The notes beneath the pieces were generated by a model, which saw nothing but the letters and a program-made list of their open reading frames with translations, searched no databases and had not been told where the DNA came from. A stretch of 47,998 bases of DNA from a virus (taxonomy: Duplodnaviria > Heunggongvirae > Uroviricota > Caudoviricetes), in the IMG/VR virus record IMGVR_UViG_2687453188_000002, one strand, 5' to 3'. Of this stretch, positions 1 through 11,088 are shown piece after piece. A program made the translations under genes and the position numbers. Position 1 is the stretch's first letter. Every line of letters starts with the position of its first letter.

Positions 1-1311
1 TTAACTTACTGATTTTAATAAGCCTCTGGTGTCACTTTGGTGACTATGGGGCATCATTGGGACATAATCTGTCAGCTTCTGATTCAGCATTGCGATCTGT
101 TCTGCATTGCTGTCAGTCATCCATGCTCCGTATACATTGAATACCATCTGGGCACTTGCATGGCCCATCTGGCTGGCAATGAAGCTTGGGTTTGCTCCGG
201 CAGATAATGACCAGCACGCATAAGTGTGTCGTGACTGGTATGCCTTTCGATGCCTGATCCCTGCACGCTTAATGGCTGTTTCCCATGAGTCACCTACAGA
301 ATCGACTTTGTAGACAAAACCTACCTGTTCGCTTTTTCTAACCACTTGAGGGTTAAACACGAAAGTACATTCATGGTTCACTGAACGTCCATATTCACGT
401 AGTTGCACCTTGATGTTGTACTGCTTACCCAGTCTTGTCATTTCAGCCTGATTTTTCAGGACACTGATAGCGGGCTGGATAAGGTGCACAACCCTGTTTG
501 TGCTTGCTTCAGTTTTCGGTAGAGTGAACTCACCAAGTTTCGTATAATTGCGCCTGATGGTAATTGTTCCTGCCTTCAGATCGATATCTTCCCAGGCCAG
601 GGAGACCAGTTCACCGTGACGCATTCCTGTGTACACAGCCAATGACCACAGGTTTTTCGTCTGCTGATGTCGGCAAGCATCTATCAGGCGAATAAATTCG
701 TCACGAGTTAGCGGATCTGGCTCTGCCCTGGCTCTTTTAAGAGGCTTAATTCCTTGGAAGGGATTTGCTTCTAAGTAACCGTGATCTGCAGCAAACTGAA
801 ACATTCCAGCGATTGTCGTCATGTAATAATTTACAGTAACAACGCTCCGTCCTTTTGCTGCTTTGTTTTTCATTGAATTCTGATACCCGGTCAGCAAATC
901 TTTCCTGATATACAGCAATTCCTCTTTGGTTACCGATGACACCAGTCTACTGCCTCCAATTTTCGGAACCATCGTTCTTGCAACGGATTCATAGCGATTG
1001 AATGCATTTGCAGAGATTTCCATTCGTTTCAGATCCAGCCACTTTTCTTCAAGTTCCTTCACCGTAATTTCTTTTTTACTTACCCCAAAAGCCTGAAGGT
1101 TGGGGGAGTCAGGGAACTGTGCAGCATAATCAAAGCTTCCTGTGCGGATGGCAAAACATACTGATGTCCGCAGTTCCCCGGCGATCTTCCTGTTCTTGGC
1201 AGTGTCAGGGACACCAAGATTTTCCCTGACACGTTTACCTTTAAAATTAAACCAGATGCGTAATGTGCCGCCGTGGTTTTCGACGCCTGTTGGATATTTG
1301 ACTTTATCCAT
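1..1311 (-). CDS. int: Tyrosine-recombinase phage integrase
   Basis: 436-aa ORF with ATG at 1309-1311 and stop at the window edge. C-terminal catalytic region carries an Arg box (GMRHGEL) and the RHTYA..HxxxQ..VYGAW arrangement typical of lambda-family integrases; sits next to an excisionase-like gene. Confidence 0.85.
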   Translation of the reverse strand: MDKVKYPTGVENHGGTLRIWFNFKGKRVRENLGVPDTAKNRKIAGELRTSVCFAIRTGSFDYAAQFPDSPNLQAFGVSKKEITVKELEEKWLDLKRMEISANAFNRYESVARTMVPKIGGSRLVSSVTKEELLYIRKDLLTGYQNSMKNKAAKGRSVVTVNYYMTTIAGMFQFAADHGYLEANPFQGIKPLKRARAEPDPLTRDEFIRLIDACRHQQTKNLWSLAVYTGMRHGELVSLAWEDIDLKAGTITIRRNYTKLGEFTLPKTEASTNRVVHLIQPAISVLKNQAEMTRLGKQYNIKVQLREYGRSVNHECTFVFNPQVVRKSEQVGFVYKVDSVGDSWETAIKRAGIRHRKAYQSRHTYACWSLSAGANPSFIASQMGHASAQMVFNVYGAWMTDSNAEQIAMLNQKLTDYVPMMPHSHQSDTRGLLKSVS

Positions 1312-8099: not shown

Positions 8100-8360
8100 A
8101 TGCAATCACCATTACGGAATGTGCGTAAGGCGCACGGATTTACTTTGCAGCATGTTGCTGCGGGCGTTCAGGTCAATCCAGCGACGCTGAGTCGTATTGA
8201 AAGACTGGAACAAATTCCATCTATCGATCTTGCAGAACGTCTGGCCAATTTTTTTAAGGGTGAAATCAGCGAAATGCAGATTCTTTATCCGGCACGTTTT
8301 CAATCTAGCCAAAACCAGAATGGGTTTAAACCACAGGAACAGGAGGTAAGCCGTGGGTAA
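8100..8360 (+). CDS. cro: Cro-like HTH regulator
   Basis: 86-aa ORF with HTH (HGFTLQHVAAGVQVNPATLSRIER) transcribed divergently from cI. Confidence 0.7.
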   Translation: MQSPLRNVRKAHGFTLQHVAAGVQVNPATLSRIERLEQIPSIDLAERLANFFKGEISEMQILYPARFQSSQNQNGFKPQEQEVSRG

Positions 8361-8910
8361 TCATCACTGGAAAGTGGAAAAACAGCCTGAGTGGTACGTG
8401 AAAGCTGTCAGAAAAACTATCGCGGCGTTGCCGGGGGGTTACGCTGAAGCTGCTGAGTGGCTGGATGTAACAGAGAACGCATTATTCAACCGCCTTCGTG
8501 CAGATGGCGATCAGATTTTCCCGCTGGGATGGGCAATGGTTTTACAGCGTGCGGCTGGCACTCACTACATTGCGGATGCTGTCGCACAGTCTGCTGGTGG
8601 GGTGTTCGTATCGCTTCCTGAAATTGAGGCAGTAGAGAACGCCGATATAAACCAGCGCCTGCTGGAAGTCATTGAACAGATCGGCAGTTATTCCAGACAG
8701 ATTCGTTCAGCAATCGAAGACGGTGTAGTGGAACCGCATGAGAAGACAGCAATTAACGACGAACTGTATCTTTCAATTTCGAAGCTCCAGGAGCATGCAG
8801 CACTGGTCTACAAAATCTTCTGCGCTCCAGAAAAGAGTAACGCCCGCGAGTGTGCAGCTCCGGGCGTCGTGGCGTCGATTGCTTCTGGTTGTGGAGAAAC
8901 TAACGCATGA
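8353..8910 (+). CDS. CII-like phage regulatory protein (CII/YdaT-type)
   Basis: 185-aa ORF right after cro with a GTG start behind an AGGAGG Shine-Dalgarno. Position is that of cII; family assigned by position and general resemblance only. Confidence 0.45.
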   Translation: MGNHHWKVEKQPEWYVKAVRKTIAALPGGYAEAAEWLDVTENALFNRLRADGDQIFPLGWAMVLQRAAGTHYIADAVAQSAGGVFVSLPEIEAVENADINQRLLEVIEQIGSYSRQIRSAIEDGVVEPHEKTAINDELYLSISKLQEHAALVYKIFCAPEKSNARECAAPGVVASIASGCGETNA

Positions 8911-10052
8911 ATAGTTTAACGGCAAATAACCGTTTGTCGCAACAGCTGGTGGTCAGCGTCGCTGAACACCTGTTGTTACGGCATGAATGCAGATTACCAA
9001 ATCACCTGGCTGTAAGTAACCACAGAGAACTTTACCTGACTGTGGGGGGCGAGTTGTGCAGGAACTTAACCGCTGGTTTCGTGACGGAAGAGGGCTTTAT
9101 GTCCATGTTATTCGTTGGGAGCCAGAAACACAGCGCGTTATCTATCTTCGCAAAGACTACCCGCATGAGTGCTTTAGTCCTTTGTGGAAATTCAGGCGTG
9201 ATTTTGTTGAGTGTGAAGGACCACCAGCATATTGATTCTGCAATTCCGGGACGTTACACTGTTCAGGCACCTTATAAAGCGGGTGCCGGGATTGGCGTCC
9301 TGAAATTCGCACATGCGCATAACCGCGCTTCAGCGGTTTTTTTGCGCACGTTTCCTCACATCCAAATTATGGTGGGGCGTGCAGGGGCATCGAAAGATGC
9401 GCCGGGGTCATGTGCGACCGGTTACGCCAACCCTGTACGTCTCACCACCTCTGTGATTGGCGTCCCATGTGGTGAGTTTTCAAAATTCGCACATGAGGAT
9501 GTCACTATGGCAACCACCCCTACCCAAACTCACCCTAAAATTGATGTTATCCATGGGAAGGCTGTTACCTCTTCTTTGGCCGTTGCCGAATATTTCTGCA
9601 AGCAGCACAAAAACGTTATTCAAAAAATCCAGACGCTTGAGTGCTCTGTTGAATTCACTGAGCTGAATTTTCAGCCCAGTGATTACACCGATTGCACAGG
9701 CCGCAAACTCCCTTGTTACCAAATCACCCGCGACGGTTTTGCGTTTCTTGCCATGGGCTTCACGGGGAAACGTGCTGCCCGGTTCAAAGAGGCATACATC
9801 AATGCCTTTAACCAGATGGAGAAACAGCTTTCAAATCCCTCTGTACTGAGCGACGTTGCACATAACGCCAGCGTTCTCTATTCCTACATTTCATCAATTC
9901 ATCAGGTCTGGCTGCAGCAGCTTTATCCCATGTTGGCAAAAGCCGAATCCCCGCTGGCTGTAAGTCTGTATGACCGCATCAACGACGCGGCGCTACTGGC
10001 CAGTCTCATAAATTTGTCGCTGAACCCTTCAGAGGTAAGGGGGCGCAAATGA
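8907..10052 (+). CDS. ORF with C-terminal Rha-type phage regulatory domain; N-terminal 200 aa of doubtful coding status
   Basis: ATG at 8907 overlaps the cII stop (ATGA). Residues from MATTPTQTHPKIDVIHGKAVTSSLAVAEYFCKQHKNVIQKIQTL (from about 9507) look like a Rha domain. The upstream part is low-complexity, contains direct repeats and a terminator-like hairpin, so the real Rha gene may start near 9507. Confidence 0.45.
   Translation: MNSLTANNRLSQQLVVSVAEHLLLRHECRLPNHLAVSNHRELYLTVGGELCRNLTAGFVTEEGFMSMLFVGSQKHSALSIFAKTTRMSALVLCGNSGVILLSVKDHQHIDSAIPGRYTVQAPYKAGAGIGVLKFAHAHNRASAVFLRTFPHIQIMVGRAGASKDAPGSCATGYANPVRLTTSVIGVPCGEFSKFAHEDVTMATTPTQTHPKIDVIHGKAVTSSLAVAEYFCKQHKNVIQKIQTLECSVEFTELNFQPSDYTDCTGRKLPCYQITRDGFAFLAMGFTGKRAARFKEAYINAFNQMEKQLSNPSVLSDVAHNASVLYSYISSIHQVWLQQLYPMLAKAESPLAVSLYDRINDAALLASLINLSLNPSEVRGRK
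9323..9343 (+). terminator. Possible short intrinsic terminator inside the 8907-10052 ORF
   Basis: ccgc-gcttca-gcgg followed by a run of 7 T. The stem is only 4 bp, so this is weak. Confidence 0.25.
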
Positions 10053-10269
10053 TCCGGAATATTTTCAAACGGTTTACCAATCATACTTTCCGTTGTCCTC
10101 GTCCGGGTCAGTGGTACACCACGCCTGCAGGGCATGTTCTACGTGTTAGCCTGGTTGACCGTGAATGTCAGAAGGTGATTTGTGAACCGCTGGGCCGTAA
10201 TTACCGCATCAGTATGCCGCTTATAGCCTTTTGCTCCGGAAAAAACATGAAGCATCTCGGAGGTGCAGC

Positions 10270-11088
10270 ATGAGTATGGAGCTGATGGTTAAAGCGATGA
10301 AAATTCGAGTGGGTAATCCATTGCGAAAACTGGTTCTGATCAAGCTGGCTGATAATGCCAGCGATCAGGGTGAGTGCTGGCCCAGCTACCAGCATATTGC
10401 TGACCAGTGCGAGATTAGCAAACGTTCTGTGATGAATCATATTGCGGCCCTTTGTGAGTCCGGGCTGGTAAAAAAAGTCACCCGGAAAGGTGAAAAAGGT
10501 AACTCAAGTAATATCTATCTCCTTCATCTTGATGGTGCAGGAGATTCACTAGGGGGTAGTGCAAATAATTCACTATCTGGTGCAGCAAATTCACCAGGTA
10601 GTGCAGGAGTTGCACCAGGGGGTGGTGCAGGAGATTCACCCAGAACCAGTCACTCTTTTGAACCAGTCAAAGAACCAGTCAATGAACCAATAGCTGTTGG
10701 TGCATCTGCTGATGAGTCTGTGCGAGTTCGTTCAAACCGACCGGAATACTCTCCGGAGTTTGAGCAGGCATGGCTGGCATACCCCAAACGTGCTGGTGGC
10801 AATTCAAAATCTGCAGCCTTCAAAGCCTGGAAAGCCCGTTTGAATGAGGGGGTAAAACCCGAAACCATGCTGGAAGGTGTGAAACGCTACGCGGGCTGGG
10901 TATCTGCGATGGGTAACAGCGGCACACAATTTGTGAAACAGGCTGTCACGTTCTTTGGTCCGGATCGTCATTTCGAAGAATCCTGGGAAGTTCCTGCGGT
11001 ATCTGCAGCCAGACGCGAGGACCCGTACTTCAAAGCCAGTTACGACAACGTGGACTACAGCCAGATCCCGGCAGGATTCAGGGGGTGA
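10270..11088 (+). CDS. Replication initiator O-like protein (HTH N-terminal domain) with internal origin iterons
   Basis: ATG at 10270 behind a GGAGG Shine-Dalgarno. N-terminal HTH (SYQHIADQCEISKRSVMNHIAALCESGLV), then a Gly/Ser/Ala linker encoded by iterons. Position after cII matches lambda O. Confidence 0.6.
   Translation: MSMELMVKAMKIRVGNPLRKLVLIKLADNASDQGECWPSYQHIADQCEISKRSVMNHIAALCESGLVKKVTRKGEKGNSSNIYLLHLDGAGDSLGGSANNSLSGAANSPGSAGVAPGGGAGDSPRTSHSFEPVKEPVNEPIAVGASADESVRVRSNRPEYSPEFEQAWLAYPKRAGGNSKSAAFKAWKARLNEGVKPETMLEGVKRYAGWVSAMGNSGTQFVKQAVTFFGPDRHFEESWEVPAVSAARREDPYFKASYDNVDYSQIPAGFRG
10534..10639. repeat. Iteron array (putative ori) inside the O-like gene
   Basis: About five imperfect 21-24-bp direct repeats of GGT(A)GTGCAG...ATTCAC; ggtgcaggagattcac is exact at 10534-10549 and 10624-10639. 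Analogous to the ori iterons inside lambda O. Confidence 0.6.

Follow-up and report, generated by a model that had tools for sequence, protein, structure and literature searches.

A probable antisense-RNA switch of the P1 immI and P4-immunity type over a Rha-family regulator in the early-right operon of an SfV/e14-like lambdoid prophage

What is encoded between a cII-like gene and a Rha-type domain when one open reading frame of 381 codons spans the whole interval? In the 47,998-nt stretch of viral DNA analysed here (hereafter the window), such a frame runs along the + strand from 8907 to 10052, and an earlier note on this DNA had doubted it after noticing direct repeats, a hairpin followed by seven Ts and an alternative GTG-initiated ORF inside it, all of which, like the 381-aa ORF itself, are present with the same coordinates. 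Our analysis indicates that the segment is probably an antisense-RNA switch of the P1 immI/P4-immunity type placed over a Rha-family regulator, in the early-right operon of an SfV/e14-like lambdoid prophage. Its elements are ordered as cII-like gene, ATGA-coupled long frame, nested DUF4222 gene, putative internal promoter, leader RNA, C4/CI-type RNA, a2/b2 target copy and rha.

The interval begins behind a cII-like gene of the YmfL family (8353..8910, +), which matches Pfam PF06892 Phage_CP76 (E 3e-15) and PHROG 101 (E 3e-73; described as 'CII-like transcriptional activator'), is named ymfL in RefSeq, and has a TGA stop (8908-8910) that shares bases with the start codon of the long ORF. With a G-run SD at 9044-9049, the GTG ORF at 9056..9235 (+), which lies within the long ORF in its +2 frame, is a genuine 59-aa DUF4222 gene, and the suspicion that a short gene follows cII was thus well placed. 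The gene matches Pfam PF13973 (E 9e-14, 51.1 bits against a cut-off of 27) and, over its full length, PHROG 1343 (E 2e-36), while comparisons with diverged homologues revealed that third codon positions of the DUF4222 frame take 28/41, 27/40 and 14/21 of the substitutions. Its protein is almost unchanged among 33 variants, and RefSeq annotates the gene in some genomes; in the literature on DUF4222 we found no functional information. A sequencing frameshift around 9050-9240, which had also been considered, is ruled out: both frames are conserved, and the layout is kept, in ~50 distinct homologues, and identical genomes are found in RefSeq.

Downstream of the DUF4222 gene lies an IsrK/seqA-type leader RNA (9267..9343, +), recognised by Rfam RF01394 (isrK) at 9267-9343 with 62.3 bits against a gathering score of 50. 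This leader is composed of a 5' hairpin, a first target copy with a1 (core TTGGCGT, 9292-9298) and b1 (TCGCACATG, 9307-9315), and an intrinsic terminator at 9321-9343, where a terminator scan returned a stem at 9321-9338 followed by TTTTTTT; the hairpin that had been taken for a terminator is therefore the one that closes the leader. The Rfam c4-a1b1 model (RF03163), which overlaps the isrK matches in Gifsy-1, Sakai and P1, stayed below threshold in the window (21.6 against 46.7). A putative internal constitutive promoter (9232..9260, +) is suggested by alignment with the annotated P1 promoter P1c4/P51b, with a -35 TTGATT (9232-9237), a 17-nt spacer, a -10 TACACT (9255-9260) and a predicted start at ~9267. 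The two promoters align column for column (-35 at 2196-2201 and -10 at 2219-2224 in the P1 sequence), and the hexamer positions TTG and TA.A.T are invariant across six phages; a generic promoter scan of the window did not call the site, which has 8/12 matches and falls under the tool threshold.

Beyond the terminator, a C4/CI-type antisense RNA (9365..9452, +) is identified by a full-length match to Rfam RF01695 at 9365-9452 (75.1 bits against a gathering score of 45). The consensus fold across 20 diverse sequences consists of a long closing stem, two internal hairpins and a single-stranded segment, with 27 pairs of which 11/27 show compensatory changes and with an outer stem unbroken in 20/20, and the window sequence adopts the same fold (z = -5.1). 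Analogy with P1, which has an annotated mature RNA, predicts mature C4 at about 9371-9449, and the conservation of its ends (AUUAU|GGUGGGG ... CCACC, common to P1) supports a model in which RNase P cleavage and 3' processing of a longer transcript would release a stable RNA of ~77 nt. The recognition segments of this RNA are b' (TCATGTGCGA, 9408-9417), located in the loop of hairpin 2, and a' (ACGCCAA, 9424-9430). A second target copy (9455..9499, +) follows, with the same layout as the annotated P1 a2/b2/icd, in which a2 (core TTGGCGT, 9457-9463) is followed by b2 (TCGCACATGA, 9487-9496), and b2 overlaps the SD GAGGA (9495-9499). Reading the sequence at the 5' end of C4 also revealed an ATG-GTG (9369..9374, +) that lies 46 codons before the rha ATG in the same frame, and that is the counterpart of the two Gifsy-1 orf45 start codons.

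The gene behind this target copy codes for a Rha-family regulator of 181 aa with its own start (9507..10052, +), matching Pfam PF09669 (Rha; E 1e-32, 113 bits against 29.9, residues 21-106 counted from the ATG at 9507) as well as PHROG 821/995/518, whose descriptions are transcriptional regulator or Rha-like. That Rha is separately initiated near 9507, as the earlier note had proposed, is borne out by the SD just described, by an ATG context (GAGGATGTCACTATGGC) resembling that of P4 kil and SfV-like modules (GAGGCTGCCATCATGGC), and by equivalent ATGs at P1 icd and Gifsy-1 anrP. The N-termini of Rha (MATTPTQTHPK) and P4 Kil (MATTLTPSHPE) are alike. By analogy with these systems, Rha from 9507 would be the cargo of the RNA switch and the counterpart of P4 kil, P1 icd-ant and Gifsy-1 anrP.

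Given these elements, we turn to the status of the long 381-codon 'eta-like' frame (8907..10052, +), which was defined from the ORF list and by homologue comparison. It is ATGA-coupled to cII (8907-8910) and open to 10052, shares its frame with the nested ATG at 9507, and spans rha, the two RNA genes, the putative internal promoter and the DUF4222 gene, which is read in another frame. Its first 200 codons are without protein-level constraint, and their openness is conserved. Variation per codon position across the RNA module is 0.570, 0.565 and 0.546, which is to say without periodicity, and the absence of codon periodicity rules out a protein-coding reading of that module; within 9056-9235, it is the second codon position of the long frame that takes the substitutions. 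Codon periodicity, put forward earlier as a means of judging each frame, thus yields a coding signature for the DUF4222 frame but none for the long frame across the RNA module. The description of the first 200 residues as "low-complexity" was inaccurate wording, as they look non-protein-like because they are mostly another gene's frame or RNA genes. Doubt about the 381-aa ORF was justified for the peptide, which is unconstrained, but the ORF is not simply spurious, being conserved in its openness and ATGA-coupled upstream.

One could still regard the long ORF as an annotation artefact, open by chance, with nothing real besides the two RNAs, DUF4222 and the 181-aa Rha and no translation of 8907-9055 or 9236-9506. 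Such a reading fits the lack of protein-level constraint in the first 200 codons, the non-periodic character of 8907-9055 in every frame, the existence of P1, Gifsy-1 and other phages that manage without such a frame, and the occasional dropping of the long form by RefSeq. We nevertheless consider it unlikely, given how consistently the frame has stayed open. Among 55 unique homologues, stops number 0 in the long frame versus 209 and 98 in the other two frames, and of the polymorphic stop sites 0/27 fall in the long frame, for which (2/3)^27 ~ 2e-5 is a simple estimate made without phylogeny, P values here being approximate as the homologues are related. Length differences between homologues are all multiples of 3, and in four unrelated upstream contexts the frame again begins with an ATGA on the stop codon of a long preceding ORF. 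Within DUF4222, stop-prone codon pairs are avoided (P ~0.04 per lineage), with synonymous resampling of the gene leaving the overlapping frame stop-free in only ~4% of trials. In e14 the long frame is still open over an unrelated 195-nt segment, and P4 eta is of the same design. These observations indicate that the long frame is maintained for translation and not for its peptide. The segment at 8911-9055 is non-periodic in all frames, gives only a weak signal of folding (z = -1.8) and is not homologous to the corresponding e14 segment; it is part of the open frame, and we make no other assignment for it. In P1, Gifsy-1, VT2-Sakai, TL-2011b and one P2-like phage a stop interrupts the frame shortly before the cargo ATG, and translation through the module is therefore not intrinsic to the RNA system.

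A second alternative takes the 381-aa ORF as one functional two-domain protein (Ash plus Rha), to whose coding the RNA matches and repeats would be incidental. In its favour is Pfam PF10554 'Ash', which matches residues 117-211 of the long ORF (E 1.7e-14, 54.6 bits against a cut-off of 26), and it can draw further on the conservation of the frame as open, on single-CDS annotation in mEp460, cdtI, ST64B, SfV, Lys8385Vzw and O104:H4, and on the literature, which regards Ash, reported in Rha proteins of Stx phages, as a protein domain whose function is unknown (PMC8951638). The PF10554 match, however, covers nt 9255-9539, which is the IsrK plus C4 module and lacks codon periodicity, with no third-position excess of variation; the variable blocks there coincide precisely with the RNA recognition segments and with their targets, and changes in the stems come as compensating pairs. 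The second-position substitutions at 9056-9235 likewise speak against a constrained polypeptide, as does the functioning of the RNA module in phages where the frame is closed. A further PF10554 match is to the old P4 'cI ORF137' and coincides exactly with the stretch of the CI RNA locus that Rfam C4 recognises, whereas the true P4 epsilon protein belongs to PF25738. In Gifsy-1, orf45 is conserved in nucleotide sequence and variable in amino-acid sequence (PMC4825925). With this evidence in view, a two-domain protein appears highly improbable. PF10554 is translated RNA and not an amino-acid-constrained domain, and it is for this reason a poor marker for P4 epsilon.

The RNA switch also explains the direct repeats. 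GATTGGCGTCC occurs in two copies (9290-9300 and 9455-9465), as does AAATTCGCACATG (9303-9315 and 9483-9495), with no further copies of either in the 48-kb window, where chance would predict 0.06 and 0.10 matches; two matches were obtained in 0/100 shuffled sequences. Between the repeat copies lie inverted repeats (9408-9417 and 9424-9433) that are complementary to both and had been overlooked in the earlier note. Specifically, b' (9408-9417) is complementary to b1 (9307-9315) and b2 (9487-9496), and a' (9424-9430) to a1 (9292-9298) and a2 (9457-9463). Segments and targets co-vary across ~30 distinct phage modules, which comprise at least 15 b specificities and 6 a specificities, and b'-b2 complementarity averages 8.7 nt for cognate pairs versus 3.7 nt for non-cognate ones. 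The repeats are neither chance nor protein operators: that they serve a DNA-binding protein (cII, Rha or a repressor), with the hairpin an ordinary operon-internal terminator, might be suggested by the promoter-like site near them and the neighbouring genes for DNA-binding proteins, but this reading is almost certainly wrong and is ruled out by RNA complementarity and co-variation. The RNA encoded between the repeats contains two segments to which the two motifs are perfectly complementary; in each specificity type a change of motif goes with a change of segment, with which the neighbouring protein genes do not keep step; the motifs are one-stranded and non-palindromic; and the layout equals that of experimentally defined P1 RNA targets. 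The proposal that the repeats are regulator-binding sites holds to the extent that they are binding sites; their regulator is the C4/CI-type RNA encoded between them, not a protein.

Comparison of the antisense-RNA switch with known systems places it closest in architecture to three of them, each of which differs from it in a particular way. The P1/P7 immI operon (P51, a1 b1, c4, a2 b2, icd, ant) shares the order and spacing of promoter, a1, b1, hairpin/T-run, C4, a2, b2 and cargo ATG, and in both b' sits in the loop of hairpin 2, a' lies in a single-stranded segment, b2 adjoins the SD and the promoter hexamers align. P1 differs in having no long frame through the module, with a stop 33 nt upstream of icd, in carrying icd plus ant as cargo, and in its recognition sequences (TTGACAG and GTTAGTG, against TTGGCGT and TCGCACATG here).

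The P4 immunity region (PLE, seqA, CI RNA, seqC), in which kil is nested in frame within eta, matches the locus in its long ORF as well. Rfam isrK, which also matches Gifsy-1 isrK, falls over seqA, and C4 over CI. In P4 as here, the long ORF is ATGA-coupled to the upstream gene, has its start ahead of the internal promoter and continues in frame across leader, RNA and targets into a short nested gene that has an SD of its own; 46 codons separate an ATG in the RNA 5' end from the nested start (kil), PF10554 matches both, and the SD/ATG context and first residues are similar. The primary paper on P4 eta/kil is that of Forti et al. from 1999. P4 differs in that it is a satellite whose cargo is the 65-aa Kil, whereas here a 181-aa Rha-family regulator stands in a lambdoid early-right operon behind a cII-like gene; the long frame here is also longer by 342 nt, holding the separate DUF4222 gene in another frame, and the recognition sequences are different. 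In P4 the control acts on termination, and PMC10111431, which summarises the eta/kil nested-gene mechanism, describes the translated long ORF as making upstream-promoter transcripts insensitive to immunity-dependent termination.

The isrK-orf45-anrP module of Gifsy-1 from Salmonella (Hershko-Shalev et al. 2016, PMC4825925) has IsrK and C4 (STnc1160/orf45') that the same models recognise, an a sequence (TTGGCGT) in common with the present locus, a terminator with partial read-through upstream of an antirepressor-type cargo, and an ATG-GTG at the C4 5' end that is used there as the orf45 start. That ATG opens a 45-codon ORF ending in ATGA on anrP, matching the orf45 of PMC4825925, where orf45 is reported to be translated and the processed RNA to be ~80 nt. 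Gifsy-1 orf45 does not share the frame of anrP and terminates at the anrP start codon (AUGA coupling), whereas the equivalent frame in the window is fused to the cargo and extended upstream to cII; in addition, the Gifsy-1 module stands behind the Q gene and not cII. The cargo proteins are unrelated by BLASTP, by which homology of Rha to AnrP was considered and rejected, and the cargo of the RNA module is exchangeable. The upstream target copy aids termination in P4 and activates translation in Gifsy-1.

With P1, P4 and Gifsy-1 as guides to promoter use, C4 processing, termination efficiency and long-frame translation, the switch would work as follows. In the lysogen, the internal promoter would give rise to a short leader, and transcripts reading through the leaky terminator would be processed to C4, which may then pair with a2/b2 and keep rha untranslated; probably, downstream transcription would be terminated by this pairing too. 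When the early promoter fires, ribosomes leaving cII would start again at the ATGA, and their translation of the long frame would carry them across the terminator, C4 and the targets, such that early-promoter transcripts would escape RNA immunity and the operon would be read through. The long ORF would thereby stand in for P4 eta, and Rha from 9507 for P4 kil.

The element or a relative of it is present in 2279/5426 complete E. coli genomes, and it is 100% identical in O104:H4 outbreak strains such as E. coli O104:H4 C227-11. Public annotation is inconsistent, with a 381-aa 'Rha', 'peptidase' or 'antirepressor' in some genomes and DUF4222 plus a truncated Rha in others, and the public records inspected hold no RNA gene annotation for the element. 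The RNA-switch reading would account for the 'Ash domain of unknown function' of Stx-phage Rha proteins (PMC8951638). It is also possible, though we offer this tentatively, that the 'eta' trick of P4 is generalised in a large lambdoid prophage group including that of O104:H4, in which a frame without meaning as protein, overprinted on DUF4222 and translated only from early-promoter transcripts, would override an RNA immunity switch and a terminator; as a corollary, the 'cell division inhibitor' YmfM of e14 would be a remnant of this frame, and SfiC filamentation may come from the nested DUF4222 protein. The principles known from P1, P4 and Gifsy-1 are left unchanged by our findings. The many segment/target specificities would form a catalogue of orthogonal RNA-RNA pairs from nature, and in prophages of pathogenic E. 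coli an antirepressor-type regulator would be under a second layer of control that is based on RNA.

The segment between the cII-like gene and the Rha domain contained everything that the earlier note had described there (repeats, a hairpin with seven T residues, a 381-aa ORF and an alternative GTG-initiated ORF), as recovered by a repeat search, a terminator scan and the ORF list. Across the 48-kb window, GATTGGCGTCC was limited to 9290-9300 and 9455-9465 and AAATTCGCACATG to 9303-9315 and 9483-9495 (chance matches expected, 0.06 and 0.10; no shuffle gave two matches), and the hairpin spanned 9321-9338 followed by T7. Both motifs were complementary to 9408-9417 and 9424-9433, between the two copies (inverted repeats I5, I8 and I9). 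Two Rfam models scored above their gathering thresholds here, isrK (RF01394; 9267-9343; 62.3 bits against a gathering score of 50), whose 3' end is the hairpin plus T7, and the C4 antisense RNA (RF01695; 9365-9452; 75.1 bits against 45). Read 5' to 3', the element comprises the a1 core (TTGGCGT, 9292-9298), b1 (TCGCACATG, 9307-9315), the terminator (hairpin plus T7, 9321-9343), the C4 recognition segments b' in the loop of hairpin 2 (TCATGTGCGA, 9408-9417) and single-stranded a' (ACGCCAA, 9424-9430), the a2 core (TTGGCGT, 9457-9463), b2 (TCGCACATGA, 9487-9496), a Shine-Dalgarno sequence (GAGGA, 9495-9499) that has two bases in common with b2, and the rha ATG at 9507. Because the order and nearly the spacing are those annotated in P1 (promoter P51b, a1, b1, hairpin with T-run, c4, a2, b2, and the icd start 10 nt past b2), with b2 over the Shine-Dalgarno, the two "duplicated modules" of the earlier note are target copies that lie upstream and downstream of the antisense RNA which they flank. 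The interpretation in that note was partly supported: a short real gene does follow cII, and the repeats are binding sites for a regulator, which is an antisense RNA and not a protein.

The isrK-then-C4 order was found in all 14 phage loci compared (including mEp460, cdtI, ST64B, SfV, phiP27, Stx phages, Gifsy-1, VT2-Sakai, TL-2011b, a Yersinia phage, a P2-like phage and P1), with the P1 leader matching the related c4-a1b1 model instead of isrK. A set of 120 viral contigs chosen by conserved leader provided about 50 distinct modules. The C4 fold showed compensatory changes in 11 of its 27 pairs with the outer stem broken in none, while the recognition segments were the most variable parts and varied jointly with both target copies. 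There were at least 15 b types (e.g., TCGCACATG, TCACCAAAG, GTTATCGG, GATCAAGG, GCATACGG, GTCAACGG and CTACACAAG; also GTTAGTG in P1) and six a types (TTGGCGT, GTGGAAA, TCGCAG, TTGGAAC, TTTGCAC, plus TTGACAG in P1), and mean b'-b2 complementarity was 8.7 nt for cognate against 3.7 nt for non-cognate pairs. This pattern is the hallmark of specificity set by RNA-RNA pairing and rules out protein operators. By model score, structure, pairing and layout the element fits the C4 and isrK families and the eta/kil arrangement, and we regard its identification as an RNA switch as close to certain.

Several further features of the modules were observed. Contig L079 (module about 570-830, minus strand) carries a natural hybrid, with a leader b1 (TCAATATAG) of one specificity but C4 b' and b2 of another (the TCACCAAAG type), such that its short leader RNA would mismatch its own C4 at the b site. 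A GGTGGTGA(G) motif 3' of a2 (window 9469-9476), conserved in almost all modules including those of Gifsy-1 and Sakai, is complementary to CTCACCACC (9441-9449), the 3' side of the stem that closes C4, which suggests that the two may pair alternatively in the unprocessed transcript. The minimum-free-energy structure of the full leader also places the rha Shine-Dalgarno inside a local hairpin (9457-9503).

A putative internal promoter lies directly upstream, with TTGATT (9232-9237) overlapping the final DUF4222 codons and TACACT (9255-9260) 17 nt downstream, about 7 nt 5' of the isrK match. Both hexamers share columns with the annotated P1 promoter (P1c4/P51b) in a six-phage alignment in which TTG and TA.A.T are invariant. 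A generic promoter scan did not report the 9232-9260 site, so we infer this promoter from homology.

The alternative frame at 9056-9235, which the earlier note had found more protein-like, is a real gene. Its 59-aa product matched DUF4222 (E 9e-14) and, from end to end, PHROG 1343 (E 2e-36), was near-invariant among 33 sequence variants and is annotated by RefSeq in some genomes. Against diverged homologues, 28 of 41, 27 of 40 and 14 of 21 substitutions fell on its third codon position, which corresponds to codon position 2 in the long ORF. In the 145 nt between the cII stop and this gene (8911-9055) none of the frames was codon-periodic, the folding signal was only weak and the corresponding e14 segment was not homologous, the sole recognisable property being that the long frame is open throughout. 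In e14 of E. coli K-12, the counterpart of window 8907-9235 is ymfM (L135 2323-2680; annotated "cell division inhibitor YmfM", the SfiC candidate), which starts by ATGA on ymfL, corresponds to the unconstrained long frame and outside the overlap is not homologous to the window. What is conserved there is the protein of a nested DUF4222 ORF, read in a different frame from a TTG start with a Shine-Dalgarno (AAGGAG) of its own. As the published pBAD-ymfM clone includes 53 of the 59 DUF4222 codons and its description mentions no frameshift or stop control, either product may be the cause of filamentation.

The long ORF itself (8907-10052, 381 codons) starts by an ATGA overlap on the stop of the cII-like gene (PF06892), and codon-level analysis of each frame argued against a conserved polypeptide. 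Within the DUF4222 overlap substitutions fall on its second codon position, and variation in the RNA module had no periodicity (mean entropy 0.570, 0.565 and 0.546 at the three positions). The Pfam match there, "Ash" (PF10554; residues 117-211, nt 9255-9539), covers exactly the IsrK and C4 module. PF10554 also matches the old P4 "cI ORF137", precisely over the Rfam C4 match marking CI RNA (phage P4, L136 8330-8521, minus strand), and the true epsilon of P4 falls in another family, PF25738; PF10554 therefore amounts to a conceptual translation of the IsrK/seqA and C4/CI RNA genes. PF10554 has been treated as a protein domain of Rha proteins in Stx phages (PMC8951638), and a published study used it as an epsilon marker for P4-like satellites.

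That the frame is open by chance is also unlikely. In 55 unique homologous modules, not one stop interrupted the reading phase of the rha ATG, against 209 and 98 in the other two frames, and all 27 distinct polymorphic stop positions lay in those two frames ((2/3)^27, ~2e-5). Length differences among modules were all multiples of three, and synonymous resampling of DUF4222 left the overlapping frame stop-free in only ~4% of trials, whereas it is actually stop-free in three or four diverged lineages. The ATGA overlap with the stop of a long upstream ORF recurs in four unrelated contexts (the cII-like gene, an Ant gene in phiP27 and, in tandem arrays, the long ORF before it in two forms), and in three more the same ATGA follows an open stretch of just 13 to 23 codons. 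Comparison with homologous prophages thus revealed a conserved DUF4222 protein and a long frame kept stop-free with its peptide unconstrained, so that the earlier doubt about a single protein was sound for the peptide but not for the frame. In P1, Gifsy-1, Sakai, TL-2011b and the Yersinia and P2-like phages, by contrast, the frame closes within 12-111 nt 5' of the cargo ATG; openness is a property of the window's lineage and not of the RNA system.

P4 has the same design. One of its ORFs starts ATGA-coupled to ORF88 and runs through seqA (isrK match) and CI (C4 match) in frame into the short gene kil, whose Shine-Dalgarno/ATG context (GGAGGCTGCCATCATGGCTAC) recurs unchanged in the SfV-like modules and has a similar counterpart in the window (GAGGATGTCACTATGGC); the first Kil residues (MATTLTPSHPE) resemble those of Rha (MATTPTQTHPK), and 46 codons separate the ATG at the RNA 5' end from the nested start in both. 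According to the passage on Forti et al. 1999 in Mageeney et al. 2023 (PMC10111431), a constitutive promoter inside eta gives a transcript terminated via CI/seqA interactions that yields CI, Kil is a truncated Eta produced on read-through, and full-length Eta is translated from the upstream promoter only, coupled to the alpA homologue, its translation blocking termination. In Gifsy-1, orf45 starts (ATG-GTG) at what is the C4 5' end, ends by AUGA on anrP, has to be translated for anrP to be expressed and is conserved in nucleotides but not amino acids, and the ~80-nt STnc1160 is processed from a read-through transcript (Hershko-Shalev et al. 2016, PMC4825925).

By homology with these systems, in a lysogen the repressor would shut the early promoter and the internal promoter would yield the short leader and, by read-through, C4, which would pair with a2/b2, block the rha ribosome-binding site and probably also provoke termination, keeping Rha and the downstream replication genes off. 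Upon induction or infection, early transcripts would be translated from cII into the long frame, with ribosomes crossing the terminator hairpin, C4 fold and targets so that these transcripts escape RNA control; Rha might then be made in a 381-aa, a 181-aa or possibly a 227-aa form (the last from ATG 9369). In P4 the upstream target copy helps termination and in Gifsy-1 it activates translation, and a1/b1 is a candidate for either role. We consider this combination of an RNA switch and an eta-like long frame probable overall, and lean more modestly towards eta-like translation itself.

Tandem modules ~865 nt apart, with differing a and b specificities, were seen in some viral contigs (L041, anchors 6905 and 7774; L050; L087), the second following a Rha-type gene via a ATGATCCGGAAT junction, and L060 (8734 and 8972) has a partly duplicated leader without C4. 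The same ATGATCCGGAAT forms the first codons of a 74-aa ORF in the window (10049-10273), ATGA-coupled to the rha stop and matching PHROG 1153 (unknown function) over its full length. Elsewhere in this prophage, three tRNA genes (18474-18546, 18559-18632 and 18649-18722) precede an STnc100 sRNA match (18802-18992, 140 bits; region 18474-18992).

Of 5426 complete E. coli genomes, 2279 contained related DNA, and the O104:H4 outbreak strains carry an identical copy. RefSeq treats DNA identical to window 8850-9560 in two incompatible ways in E. coli FORC_043 and O104:H4 C227-11, one having a 381-aa Rha protein and the other DUF4222 together with a 295-aa Rha that starts internally, with no ncRNA annotated at this DNA in either, and GenBank phage records name the long ORF "peptidase", "antirepressor" or "transcriptional regulator". 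The element belongs to the known C4/isrK plus eta/kil type and is set apart from the model systems by its Rha-family cargo, unrelated to Gifsy-1 AnrP, by its place in a lambdoid early operon, behind a cII-like gene, and by the separate DUF4222 gene overprinted on its long frame. It is of value for correcting the "Ash domain" annotation, for carrying the P4 eta principle over to lambdoid prophages on comparative grounds and for the side question that it raises on e14 YmfM.
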